From Longimicrobiales bacterium (lineage in GTDB: Bacteria > Gemmatimonadota > Gemmatimonadetes > Longimicrobiales > Gaopeijiaceae), in assembly GCA_965202805.1 (NCBI GenBank), contig OZ241869.1:2688001-2752000 (forward strand): 64,000 nucleotides of DNA, given 5' to 3'. Below the pieces are notes generated by a model that did not search any database, was not told the DNA's origin, and was given only the letters and a program-made list of their open reading frames with translations. Below are positions 57,543-62,409 of the stretch, in pieces. Each line of letters begins with the position of its first letter. The stretch's first letter is position 1. Position numbers and translations under genes: made by a program.

Positions 57543-57703
57543 CCAGGGAAAGCGAATCGCCTGAGGACTCTCCCCATCTCTTGACCCACAAGGGACCGAA
57601 TGGGACACTTCAAAGCTATCCTTCGACCCTCGGTTGAGAGCCGTTTTCAGGCCTGAGGGTGCCGCCTTGCCCCTTCCTGCCGCCATCCGCAGGAGCTGAC
57701 GCC

Positions 57704-59182
57704 ATGTCCGCCGATACAGCCACGATCGATATCTCGCGCGAACCCATCCGCAACTATGTCGCGGGCCGCTGGACGGCGCCGTCGGGCGCGGGCTCGCTGC
57801 CGGTCACCAATCCCACCACCGGTGAGCCCCTGGGACGGGTGCCCCTTTCCACGGGCGCGGATGTGGAAACCGCCGTTGCCGCCGCCACCGCGGCCTTCCC
57901 CGGTTGGCGTCGCACGCCCGCGGTCGACCGCGCCCGGGTCCTCTTCCGCCTGAAGCATCTGCTCGACGAGCACAAGGACACGCTGGCCCGCTCCCTGGTC
58001 ATCGAGCACGGAAAGAACCTGGACGAGTGCCGGGGGGAGCTTCAGCGCGGCATCGAGAATGTCGAACACGCCTGCGGCATCCCCACGCTGATGATGGGCG
58101 ATGTGCTGGAGGACGTGGCGCCGGGCATCGACTGCGAGGCCATCCGGCAGCCGCTCGGGGTCTTTGCCGTCGTCTCTCCCTACAACTTCCCCGTGATGAT
58201 CCCGATGTGGTTCTGGCCCTACGCCGTAGCCGCGGGCAACACGGTGGTGCTCAAGCCCAGCGAGCAGGATCCGCTCACCCACCAGCGGGTGGTGGAACTG
58301 GCCGAGCAGGCCGGCCTGCCCCCCGGCGTGCTCAATGTGGTGCACGGCGACCGGGAGGCGGTGACCGCGCTGCTCGAGCATCCCGGGATCGCGGGGGTCT
58401 CCTTCGTGGGCTCGAGCCAGGTCGCGCGCATCCTGTACAGGAAGGCGGGCGCGGCCGGCAAGCGCGTGCAGGCGCTCGGGGGGGCCAAGAACCACATGAT
58501 CGTGCTCCCGGACGCGGACTACGACCTGGTCGCCGACGCGGTGGTGTCGTCGATCTTCGGCTCGGCCGGGCAGCGCTGCCTCGCCGGCAGCGTCGTGGTG
58601 GGGGTGGCCGACGCCTACGCGAACATCCGCGAGCGCATCCTCGACCGCTCGGCCTCGCTGCGCGTGGGCAACGGGCTCGAGGACGGGGTGGACATGGGCC
58701 CGGTGATCTCCGCCGGCCACCGCGACCGGGTGGTGGGCTACATCGACAGCGGCGTGAAGGAGGGGGCTTCGCTGACGATGGACGGCCGCGACGCCAGCGT
58801 GCCCGGCTACCCGGACGGCAACTGGGTCGGCCCGACCATCTTCGAGGACGTGCACCCCGACATGGCGATCGGCAAGGACGAGATCTTCGGGCCGGTGATG
58901 GGCATGAGCCGGGTGGACACGGTGGAGGACGCCATCGAGCTCATGCACCGGAGCGAGTACGGAAACGCCACCTCGATCTTCACGACGAGCGGGCGCGCCG
59001 CGCGCGAGTTCCGTTACCACGCGGGCATCAGCATGATCGGCATCAACATCGGCGTGGCGGCGCCGATGGCCTTCTTCCCCTTCGGAGGCTCGCGCGGCTC
59101 CTTCTTCGGCGATCTCAAGGCTCAGGGCCGTGACTCCGTCGAGTTCTTCACCGACAAGCGCGTGGTGATCACGCGGTGGTGA
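57704..59182 (+). CDS. mmsA: CoA-acylating (methyl)malonate-semialdehyde dehydrogenase
   Basis: PYNFPVMIPMWF, KPSE, GGAKNH, AGQRCLA, EIFGPV, FFGDL. Confidence 0.92.
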   Translation: MSADTATIDISREPIRNYVAGRWTAPSGAGSLPVTNPTTGEPLGRVPLSTGADVETAVAAATAAFPGWRRTPAVDRARVLFRLKHLLDEHKDTLARSLVIEHGKNLDECRGELQRGIENVEHACGIPTLMMGDVLEDVAPGIDCEAIRQPLGVFAVVSPYNFPVMIPMWFWPYAVAAGNTVVLKPSEQDPLTHQRVVELAEQAGLPPGVLNVVHGDREAVTALLEHPGIAGVSFVGSSQVARILYRKAGAAGKRVQALGGAKNHMIVLPDADYDLVADAVVSSIFGSAGQRCLAGSVVVGVADAYANIRERILDRSASLRVGNGLEDGVDMGPVISAGHRDRVVGYIDSGVKEGASLTMDGRDASVPGYPDGNWVGPTIFEDVHPDMAIGKDEIFGPVMGMSRVDTVEDAIELMHRSEYGNATSIFTTSGRAAREFRYHAGISMIGINIGVAAPMAFFPFGGSRGSFFGDLKAQGRDSVEFFTDKRVVITRW

Positions 59183-60468
59183 ACGCGCGCGCCGGCGCGG
59201 CACTGATCGAGCGCCAGCGCGCCTCCATCTTCCCGTGCGTGAAGCCGTTGTACGACGTGCCTCTGGTGCTCGTGGAGGCGGAGGGGGTGCGGGCCAGGGG
59301 CGCTGACGGGCGACAGTATCTGGACCTCTTCGCGGGCATCCTCACCACCTCCATCGGGCACTGCCATCCGCGAGTGGTCGCCGCCGTGCAGGACCAGGTC
59401 GCGCGCCTGGGCCACACCTCGAACCTCTACGTGACCGAGCCCTACGTGGCCGCGGCGGAGCGGCTCACCAGCCTCGCGCCCGCCGGCCTCGACCAGGTCA
59501 TGTTCACCAACAGCGGCACCGAGGCCATCGAGACGGCGGTCATGCTGGCGCAAATGCATACCCGGCGCAGCGAGATCATCGGCCTGCGGCTCGGCTACTC
59601 CGGGCGCAGCACGCTGGCTACGGGCCTGACCGGGCAGGCGCAGTGGAAGCCGCTCCCGGCGATGGCCCCGATCCGGCACGCCATCGCGCCGTATCCGTAC
59701 CGGCACGCCGACGGCGACAACGTCGACCGCTACATCGACGAGCTGGTCGAGGTGATCGAGACCACGACCACCGGACGGCCCGCCGCCCTGCTCGCCGAGA
59801 CCATCCAGGGGGTGGGTGGCTACATCGTTCCGCCGCCGGGATACCACACGCGTGCCGCCGAGGTGATCCGCGCCTACGGGGGCGTGTTCATCTGCGATGA
59901 GGTGCAGGCCGGGTTCGGACGCACCGGCGACCGCTGGTTCGGCATCGAGCACTGGGAGGTCGAGCCCGACATCATGGTGGTCGCCAAGGGGGTGGCGAAC
60001 GGCTTCCCGGTCGGCGGCACGCTGGCCCGCGAGGAGATCGCCGCCGCCTGGACGGGGCTCACCTTCTCCACCTACGGGGGCAGCCCGGTGTCCATGGTGG
60101 CCGCGCGCGCGACCATGGACGTCATGGTCGAGGAGAACACCCCCGCCCGGTCCGCCGAGCGCGGACGCCAGATGCGCGAAGGCCTGGAAGCACTCCAGCG
60201 CGACTATCCGTGGATCGGTGACGTGCGCGGAATGGGGCTGATGATCGCCCTGGAGCTGGTCGAGGACCCGGTCACCAAGGAGCCCGGCGCCAGGCTCGGC
60301 AAGGCGCTCCTGGAGGCTGCGCGCGAGGAAGGCGTGCTCATCGGGCTCGGCGGCATGGGCGGCCACGTGATCCGCATCGGCCCCTCCATGCTGATCACCC
60401 CGGAGGAGGTCGCAGAGGGGGTGGAGCGGCTGCGGCAGGCCTGCGCGCGGGTCGAAGCGGGGAGATAG
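59179..60468 (+). CDS. Class III PLP aminotransferase (AGXT2/beta-alanine transaminase-like)
   Basis: NSGTEA, ETIQGVGG, DEVQAGFGRTG, AKGVANG; GTGA-coupled to mmsA. Confidence 0.9.
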   Translation: MNARAGAALIERQRASIFPCVKPLYDVPLVLVEAEGVRARGADGRQYLDLFAGILTTSIGHCHPRVVAAVQDQVARLGHTSNLYVTEPYVAAAERLTSLAPAGLDQVMFTNSGTEAIETAVMLAQMHTRRSEIIGLRLGYSGRSTLATGLTGQAQWKPLPAMAPIRHAIAPYPYRHADGDNVDRYIDELVEVIETTTTGRPAALLAETIQGVGGYIVPPPGYHTRAAEVIRAYGGVFICDEVQAGFGRTGDRWFGIEHWEVEPDIMVVAKGVANGFPVGGTLAREEIAAAWTGLTFSTYGGSPVSMVAARATMDVMVEENTPARSAERGRQMREGLEALQRDYPWIGDVRGMGLMIALELVEDPVTKEPGARLGKALLEAAREEGVLIGLGGMGGHVIRIGPSMLITPEEVAEGVERLRQACARVEAGR

Positions 60469-60500: not shown

Positions 60501-61541
60501 TCAGCGGTCGCCCGCAGTGCTCGCGCTTCTGACCCGCACCTCCCCCTCCTCCACCACGAGCTCCTGGACGCGCTCGGCCTCATCGAACAGGAAGGGCCAG
60601 CGGCCTGAGGCGCCATCCGCCAGCCGCACGCGGCGTATGCCGTCCAGCGAGAGCGGCCGGCCCGGCTGAACGACGGCCGGACCCGTGGCCTCATACATCC
60701 AGACGGCGCCGCCCAGTGCCGAAGACACGCGGTAGCTTCCGTCCTCGATTTCCAGTGCGGCCCCCTCGTCGATCCCGATCCCGACGAACGAGCCCGAGCG
60801 GTGCTGCGCCAGCAGACGCCCGAGGAAGGCGAGGAGCCGTCCCTCACGGGACCGCTCCGTGAAGTGGGAGTCCACGATCGTGTTCGCGAGCTCGGGCTGA
60901 GGCAGGTTCGATGGTCCCACGCTGACCGATACGTCGGCGGGTTCCGAGAGGGCTTCGCCCGATGTGATGGTGCCGTGCCGGGCATCGAATGCGGCTTCGC
61001 CCAGCGACACCGCTCCGGCGCTGGTCCCGCCCAGGGCCGCCCCTCGGCGCGTTGCTTCCCCCACGGCGACATGGACCGAATTCGGCCACCGCCCCAGGTA
61101 GTTCCACTGGCTTCCGCCGGCGAGCCAGATCGCCTCCGCCCTGCCGAGGCGGCAGAGGACGCTCGGGTGGTCCGCCAGCGGAGGGGTGTCGGTGCGAATC
61201 GTGACCACCGAGGCCGGAGCCGGACTGGGGGCCAGTTCCGCCGAGAAATAGTCCGGGTAGCTGGTCAGCGAACCCGTTGCGCGCAACACGACGATGTCGC
61301 CTCCGGCGGCCGCTTCGGCGAAACGGCGGGCGGCGCCGTCCTCCTCGGGTCCTCCTCCCATGAGCACCAACCGGCGGACGGGAGACGGGGTGGCGTCGCT
61401 CCCGGTTCCCCGAAGCCCTCCGATCGTGGTGCCCGCGCCGGGTTCGGGGCAGCCCTCGAGCGGCTCGCCCAGCGAGGTCGCGCGCGTCGAATCGGCGCAC
61501 GCGGCGGCCGCCGCGACCACGAGCGCCGTCGAGATTCTCAT
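60501..61541 (-). CDS. Cyanophycinase-like S51 peptidase, lipoprotein
   Basis: AAAC lipobox; LMGGG, AGGSQ, GTSAG, DSHF..R.R.GRL, GIDE. Confidence 0.88.
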   Translation of the reverse strand: MRISTALVVAAAAACADSTRATSLGEPLEGCPEPGAGTTIGGLRGTGSDATPSPVRRLVLMGGGPEEDGAARRFAEAAAGGDIVVLRATGSLTSYPDYFSAELAPSPAPASVVTIRTDTPPLADHPSVLCRLGRAEAIWLAGGSQWNYLGRWPNSVHVAVGEATRRGAALGGTSAGAVSLGEAAFDARHGTITSGEALSEPADVSVSVGPSNLPQPELANTIVDSHFTERSREGRLLAFLGRLLAQHRSGSFVGIGIDEGAALEIEDGSYRVSSALGGAVWMYEATGPAVVQPGRPLSLDGIRRVRLADGASGRWPFLFDEAERVQELVVEEGEVRVRSASTAGDR

Positions 61542-62224
61542 GACGTATGGAGCTGCCAGAAGGCGCCTTCGAGACCCGCCTCGCGCAAGAGGGCCTGCTT
61601 CGTCTCCGCCGAGGAGGGACGCCAACGGTCGCTCAGCCGACCCGCGTACCATCCGCGGCTCAGCCTGCCCAGCGTCTCGACCGGCACGGTCGCACCCGGG
61701 TCGACACCCCGCCGCGCCGCCCACCGGGCCGCATCCGCTTCCGACCGGAACGCCAGGATGTTGCGTCAGGTGTAGCCGATGTCGTCCCAGAAGCGCCGGG
61801 CCGGCACGGGGAAGCGGACCACCGCGCCGTCGGCAGGTTCGACTCGCCCGCTGGTCACCGCCAAGTGGATCGCGGCGCCGGACCGGGGGCACGCGGTTCG
61901 CGTCCGTCCGTCGACGTCGAGGAGCAGCGGGATCGCGAGAGCATCCCAGGCGCAGTTGGCCCGGTAGTCCGTCCATCGCGTACGCACCCGGAAGGGCGTC
62001 TCCATGGCCGAAAAGGGATGAGCCATCCGGATTTCGCCCGCCTCGTCCAGAACCAGGATGTGAGCTTCCGCCAGGAACGCCAGAGCTCGATCCACATCGC
62101 CGGCCCCGGCTCCCAGTCCCCCGGCAAGTTCGACGCGGTCGGGGACCACCCCTGATTCACCGATTCTCCGGTAAAGATGGCCGCGCAAGCGCCACGCGAA
62201 TGCGTCACCTCGTCCTGTCACCAC
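61538..62224 (-). CDS. MerB-like organomercurial lyase, probable selenoprotein (UGA at 61766-61768)
   Basis: MAHPFS...NCAWDALAI...WDDIGYT-UGA-RNILAFRSE...WYAGRL...GLEGAFWQL. The frame stays open ~75 codons past the UGA and ends in an ATGA overlap with the next gene. Confidence 0.85.
61730..61765 (-). promoter_or_regulatory. Putative bacterial SECIS hairpin
   Basis: Directly 3' of the UGA: CAUCC/GGAUG lower stem, UUCC/GGAA upper stem, GGUC apical loop at +20 to +23. Confidence 0.7.
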
Positions 62225-62409
62225 GGTCTCCCCTCGCTCCAACGCCAGGCAACACCCGGCTCTGCAGGCATCCCGGCACCATGGTGAGCCGCTGCCGAAA
62301 CGTCCAGCCCCAGGCGAAGCCGTTGCAGCCGTGCCGTCCCGCGGCTAGGCTTTTCCGATCAGACGAAGGGCGCATAACCGGTGGACGTGAGAGGAGGTCG
62401 GACAGGATC

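Follow-up and report, generated by a model that had tools for sequence, protein, structure and literature searches.

The gene that leads the minus-strand pair at 60501-62224 of the window (the whole stretch of DNA analysed, 64,000 nucleotides) raises the question of whether the TGA that closes its open reading frame is a stop or a selenocysteine (Sec) codon and, if the latter, what the completed protein may do.

A MerB-like reading frame runs through an in-frame TGA

The table-11 reading frame stops at TGA 61768-61766 on the minus strand, and 75 further sense codons (RNILAFRSE...FWQLHTS) lead to a second TGA (61540-61538); this codon and the start ATG of the next gene share letters in an ATGA overlap (Table 1). 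The first-pass annotation, made from the letters alone, had described this arrangement, to which the strand is added here. The likely start is GTG 62221, 6 nt after GGAG (the database call starts at 62224), giving a protein of 227 residues with the UGA at residue 152, or a truncated product of 151 residues if TGA is taken as a stop.

Table 1. Features of the MerB-like gene and its surroundings (positions of the window)
Feature	Position	Strand	Details
Full MerB-like selenoprotein gene (putative)	61538..62221	minus	227 aa; start GTG 62221 (or GTG 62224), stop TGA 61540-61538
Shine-Dalgarno-like GGGGAG 5' of the GTG starts (putative)	62229..62234	minus	Read from sequence
C-A-W-D codons	61943..61954	minus	Cys90 and Asp93, equivalents of MerB Cys96 and Asp99 by alignment to MerB
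In-frame TGA, probable Sec152	61766..61768	minus	MerB Cys159 column, motif WDDIGYT-U
75 codons 3' of the UGA	61541..61765	minus	Remaining MerB catalytic domain and about 25 C-terminal residues ending GLxGxFW
SECIS-like stem-loop	61732..61760	minus	Upper stem UUCC/GGAA (61750-61747, 61742-61739), apical loop GGUC (61746-61743), bulged G, lower stem
Downstream cyanophycinase-like (peptidase S51) gene	60501..61541	minus	346 aa; joined by ATGA overlap; Pfam S51 22.8 bits

The read-through product scored 90.6 bits against the Pfam MerB family (PF03243, cut-off 27 bits) over profile positions 1-125, compared with 54.1 bits (positions 1-80) for the frame before the TGA alone and 18.4 bits (positions 87-125) for the tail alone. 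The Cys-x-x-Asp motif (Cys90/Asp93) was invariant in 25 of 25 aligned members, as were the tail residues W167, L187, W191, G219, F221 and W222. Tail dN/dS was 0.11-0.21 in seven of eight pairs and 0.51 in the other (0.18-0.50 upstream of the TGA), indicating that the tail is under purifying selection. The structural alignment of the predicted fold to MerB structures stopped near residue 200, about 25 C-terminal residues lying beyond the MerB structures.

The TGA occupies the MerB Cys159 column

In pairwise and profile alignments the UGA aligned with MerB Cys159, and NCAWD with Cys96 and Asp99; both correspondences had been anticipated by the first-pass annotation. These three are essential MerB residues in the accessible text of PMC10114901. 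All 28 of the related loci compared (in Gemmatimonadota, Acidobacteriota, Chloroflexota, Actinomycetota, Methylomirabilota and in bins with a Pseudomonadota label) had TGA as this codon, as had all 14 full-length matches among 61 relatives, own genome counted. Among 301 genomes of the phylum there were 35 full-length matches, 32 with one TGA (in 31 genomes) and 3 with TGC; the 88 distinct forms comprised 71 TGA and 17 TGC, with neither TAA nor TAG at the column. The genomes are kin, and these counts are not independent. Unlike the internal TGA, the terminal stop codon varied among all three stops in homologous loci.

At protein level, the 150 best representatives of 4237 matches (25-member profile search, E up to 0.001) had Cys at the column in 68 cases and ended just before it in 74, the others carrying Trp (2), another residue (5) or leaving it uncovered (1). 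Thr preceded the UGA in 25 of 25 members, and 119 of 120 close homologues among the matches listed ended at this Thr.

Three refutation tests of recoding had been set beforehand: Sec machinery, a Cys column and TGA error. The Cys column is described above. As to error, contigs from 4 runs of 4 studies had no other letter at TGA 61766-61768; this agreement, together with conservation of the codon across phyla, indicates that the TGA is neither an assembly error nor a private nonsense mutation. Haft and Gwadz ask of a selenoprotein family at least 10 examples, all with TGA at the site, and 71 distinct TGA forms were found here; they also ask for similarity through the site and Cys homologues of like length, and the tail is conserved and Cys abundant among the best 150 matches. 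Judged from these comparisons, the in-frame UGA is very likely read as Sec.

If the TGA were instead a true stop, the product would be the 151-residue protein, with the tail separately translated from its own start or a relic. In 18 of 61 distinct forms a potential start codon (ATG, GTG or TTG) lies in frame no more than 3 codons downstream of the TGA, which would suit such a reading, as would the short form prevailing in databases; partial termination at Sec codons is, for its part, normal under low selenium. Against it, TAA and TAG are absent from the column and the first downstream start in the window is codon 27, by which point FRSE and Trp, both conserved, have been passed; the tail shows purifying selection and the stop sits exactly on the catalytic Cys column, so that a true stop is highly improbable.

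A conserved SECIS-like hairpin follows the TGA

A hairpin with a GGUC loop about 20 nt past the UGA, similar to that of E. coli fdhF, had been proposed in the first-pass annotation. It is present: the loop begins 19 nt after the UGA (18 nt in fdhF), and the two elements share the GGUC apical loop, a short upper stem, a bulge beneath and similar fold energies over 45 nt (-15.5 kcal/mol here, -14.9 in fdhF). The stem letters UUCC/GGAA and the bulged G are unlike fdhF, and SelB binding is putative here. Its stability is unexceptional. The hairpin of this copy (-15.5 kcal/mol for about 42-45 nt) was no more stable than shuffled sequences (z 0.25, -0.47 and -0.27 for three cuts), a 26-nt cut folded differently (-7.2 kcal/mol), and the copy carries a rare G.G stem mismatch (1 of 61 distinct forms), several other strains having a pairing letter there. 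Since the single-sequence fold was not significant, the case for the hairpin rests on conservation and not on energy.

Synonymous codons were fixed within the hairpin (Arg159 was CGG in 25/25 and Ser160 TCG in 24/24, against backgrounds of 35% and 39%), and no 4- or 6-fold codon column outside it exceeded 0.75. Among 61 forms, each of the five inner pairs was kept in 57-61; one outer pair alternated between U-A (20), C-G (17) and G-C (7), kinship and linked amino-acid changes inflating the pair-shuffle result. The exact hairpin core occurred in 65 of the 71 TGA forms vs. 1 of the 17 TGC (Cys) forms. The bSECIS model, as given in the accessible part of PMC13188914, has a loop of 3-9 nt with G in its first two positions, an upper stem of 4-16 bp, a spacing of 16-37 nt from the UGA and an energy of at most -7.5 kcal/mol; the corresponding values here, all within these bounds, are a 4-nt GGUC loop, a 4-bp upper stem, 19 nt and -15.5 kcal/mol.

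Rfam, promoter and terminator scans gave no match. A genome-wide scan for TGA followed by a GGNN loop on a stem of 5 or more straight pairs returned only out-of-frame noise and missed this gene, the stem of which has 4 pairs; a genome-wide codon-model scan gave 75 candidates, mostly adjacent genes, and also missed it.

Selenocysteine machinery in the genome and selA in nearly all carriers

The own genome (98% complete) contained selA, selB and selD above curated cut-offs and a tRNA-Sec, which settles in the affirmative the machinery check that the first-pass annotation had proposed. A selA was present in 31 of 31 carriers of the phylum (a tally including the unpublished genome G230) vs. a background of 241/301, in 22 of 22 distant carriers (21 above cut-off) and in 13 of 14 carrier relatives, the exception being a 78% complete genome (G024) also without a selB match. 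The TGA thus tracks selA, another point against a true stop. Of four TGC forms in the phylum, two lie in selA-positive genomes (G335 and G214) and two where neither selA nor selB was matched. G024 and the TGC forms of G335 and G214 count against recoding, and kinship among the genomes keeps these tallies from being independent.

The same data bear on whether UGA is read as Trp or Cys through a variant code or a suppressor tRNA. Three database proteins do have Trp at the column (P0108, P0124 and P0133), records for which gene calling under a UGA=Trp code is the most likely source. TGA terminates this gene and its neighbours, tRNA-Sec was the only tRNA with a TCA anticodon called in the genome, and a suppressor would need no conserved hairpin, all of which makes such decoding scarcely credible.

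ARAGORN also called a tRNA with the anticodon TTA, matching a stop codon, at G000:C1 502084-502165 of the own genome, a call that is possibly false. Four further selenoprotein-like genes with an in-frame TGA were seen on the same contig, at 1802767 (+), 104147 (+), 2635862 (+) and 2593973 (-); named by eye, they are a redoxin-like gene with U-x-x-C, two OsmC-like paralogs (GG-U-LxGT) and an AhpD-like gene with C-x-x-U.

The protein falls outside both canonical MerB and SaoL

Canonical MerB was rejected as an identification: the protein scored 45.4 (NF009710) and 38.3 bits (NF033555) against cut-offs of 193 and 200, real MerB controls scoring 252-323. Identity to five canonical MerB proteins was only 25-29%. 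Within the MerB signature of Cys96, Asp99, Cys117 and Cys159, Cys90, Asp93 and Cys111 are present and the Cys159 site is TGA, which leaves the signature incomplete; across the family, the Cys117 position was Cys in only 14 of 25 members and the Cys160 position was Ala, Arg or Ser. The protein thus resembles MerB (EC 4.99.1.2; PDB 3F0O and 3F2F, and MerB2 5C17) in its predicted fold and in having equivalents of Cys96, Asp99 and Cys117 in this copy, and differs from it in a probable Sec for Cys159, the lack of Cys160, an extra C-terminal helix and the GLxGxFW motif. Its branch further differs in having no mer operon, mostly no MerA, and a separate position in the tree.

That tree (FastTree, 75 rows) separated, with support 100, five plasmid MerB proteins and one close relative from an interleaved set of 32 Sec forms and 37 Cys forms. 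Ten Sec/Cys label changes are needed, only 2 of them forced by strong branches. Eight of 83 rows had been left out (long branches, Trp read-throughs and one frameshifted sequence), and SaoL was not among the rows.

SaoL (NCBIfam NF040728; Haft and Gwadz, bioRxiv 10.1101/2022.07.06.499078) is the one MerB-like selenoprotein in print among the literature searched, and the only such entry in the accessible parts of reviews from 2022 and 2026. It had been cited in the first-pass annotation, which called this gene a MerB-like selenoprotein; the MerB-like Sec design stood, and the protein proved not to be SaoL itself but a member of a separate branch. It scored 36 bits against the SaoL cut-off of 140 (best E-value among 25 members, 7e-11), and no SAO locus surrounds the gene. 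As far as SaoL is described in the available text of that preprint, the two have in common the MerB fold (PF03243; predicted here), equivalents of Cys96 and Asp99, Sec at the Cys159 equivalent, database truncation at the UGA and an organometal-lyase function that is predicted only. From the same description, SaoL has Cys-Sec (CU), about 50 residues after Sec, a place in the nine-gene SAO locus and hosts among anaerobic Firmicutes, spirochetes and deltaproteobacteria, whereas the protein described here has Thr-Sec (TU), about 75 residues after Sec, a stand-alone position among unrelated genes and a branch hosted by Gemmatimonadota, Acidobacteriota, Chloroflexota, Actinomycetota and Methylomirabilota. 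SaoB and SaoC gave no match in genome-wide searches run without a positive control, and no SaoL above cut-off was found in 301 genomes of another phylum.

Judged by sequence, the protein very likely represents a widespread selenoprotein branch of the MerB superfamily (PF03243) distinct from SaoL, and its Sec likely arose separately from that of SaoL. Full-text searches found no paper describing such a non-SaoL branch. The text of the deep-Sep paper made no mention of mercury, lyase or PF03243, and that of the BSepDB paper none of MerB; BSepDB may already file these genes under its MerB-like family.

Genomic context lacks mercury genes

No other gene of its genome matched the MerB family. A mer operon nearby, noted as missing at first pass, is absent from this locus and from those of the family: the scan of 118 out of 174 neighbour ORFs at 27 loci (crude ORF picking) gave no mer transport or regulator family and no partner gene recurring across phyla, the only mer-family match being a second MerB-like gene. 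MerA above cut-off was absent from the own genome (best match 347 bits vs. 454; the second was a dihydrolipoyl dehydrogenase) and present in 5 of 58 other carriers, the count covering carriers only. The 347-bit match, at G000:C1 156090-157472 (+), is a MerA-like flavoprotein without the C-terminal Cys pair, similar to sub-cut-off matches in many carriers.

The cyanophycinase-like neighbour (Pfam S51 cut-off 23.9; TIGR02069 52.8 bits vs. 126.6) was a partner in close relatives only, distant loci having different neighbours. Convergent with it, a methylmalonate-semialdehyde dehydrogenase (over cut-off) overlaps a class III aminotransferase at 57659-60468 (+) of the window. SAM methyltransferases, far below ArsM cut-offs, adjoined the gene in 4 of 27 loci (L016, L019, L025 and L026). 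A cobalamin methionine synthase and an MTHFR-like gene precede it at L019, and ORFs of similar size take that place at L018 and L024.

Close relatives were labelled Gemmatimonadota, several of them Longimicrobiales, and several runs with this stretch were labelled sponge metagenome; none of the 23 listed runs containing it was an RNA run.

A possible selenium-based organometal lyase

By analogy with MerB, the explanation that we favour, with a little better than even confidence, is that an organometal cation would be gripped by Cys90 and Sec152 and its metal-carbon bond cut via Asp93. The UGA would be decoded as Sec, directed by the fdhF-type hairpin, to give a single 227-residue protein of MerB fold; Cys90 and Sec152 would then bind the cation, most likely an organomercurial such as methylmercury, and Asp93 would donate a proton to the carbon, as in the MerB mechanism set out in the accessible text of PMC10114901. 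The freed metal would be passed to cell thiols or to a reductase other than MerA. To the same degree, the analogy makes a metal-carbon lyase the rather probable identity of the protein. Since MerA is mostly absent, it may serve as a stand-alone, high-affinity scavenger of trace organometals and not as part of an inducible resistance operon.

That methylmercury is the natural substrate is put forward tentatively, at somewhat less than even confidence. Few MerA, no mer neighbours, low MerB identity and the variable Cys160 and Cys117 positions count against mercury, and a selenolate may bind Hg(II) too tightly for turnover. A selenoprotein with another natural task is the alternative: it would act on another organometal or metalloid (organotin, lead, arsenic, antimony, alkyl-selenium or tellurium), sequester metal, or undergo Cys90-Sec152 selenenylsulfide redox cycling. 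The missing mer context fits this, as do a distinct clade with its own C-terminal extension and the methyltransferases adjoining the gene at some loci; in the portions available, Haft and Gwadz voice the same doubt for SaoL, and MerB is described as binding other metals. The invariant Cys-x-x-Asp, needed for MerB protonolysis, argues the other way, the methyltransferases fall far under ArsM cut-offs and no neighbour indicates another metal. Taken as a whole, a task other than organomercury cleavage is less likely than not, yet a serious competitor of the favoured reading. Returning to organomercurial cleavage, its widest form, in which this large, separate Sec branch would demethylate methylmercury independently of MerA in sponge symbionts as well as in marine and soil bacteria and so form a hidden selenium-based methylmercury sink, is a doubtful possibility that we advance with reserve.

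A survey of MerB (PMC8261052) keeps homologues with Cys96, Asp99, Cys117 and Cys159, and its table has a single Gemmatimonadetes entry. A Cys159-based filter would likely miss the present branch because the stored sequences end one residue short of that site; the branch was found in 31 of 301 genomes, about a tenth of the Gemmatimonadota genomes. If methylmercury is cleaved, more kinds of microbe demethylate it than present estimates allow, and the puzzling occurrence of MerB without MerA can be put to the test in this branch; if it is not, the branch points to unfamiliar chemistry of organometals or selenium. The family also interleaves natural Sec forms with Cys forms, which makes ready pairs for probing the effect of selenium at a heavy-metal site.

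Further members of the family

A distant MerB-like gene (L098:1285-2040, plus strand, genome G374) carries TGA at two sites, those of Cys96 and Cys159, with a hairpin of the same type after the second; its genome has selB. Of 120 homologues among the matches listed, 75 stop at the first of these sites and 5 at the second, and 33 show Trp at both; it is probably a separate two-selenocysteine family. Locus L028 carries, about 700 bases from the first gene, a second divergent MerB-like gene on the minus strand (ORF 6876-6400 plus a continuation past its TGA), in which Glu stands at the Asp99 site (GQCGLE) and TGA at that of Cys159, again with this hairpin. Two Cys forms, P0134 and P0213, carry a fusion partner, either a LuxR-type DNA-binding domain or a PhzF-like isomerase; another, intact (L113), is located on Ralstonia megaplasmids, which account for 98 of 111 plasmid matches, most of them unnamed.
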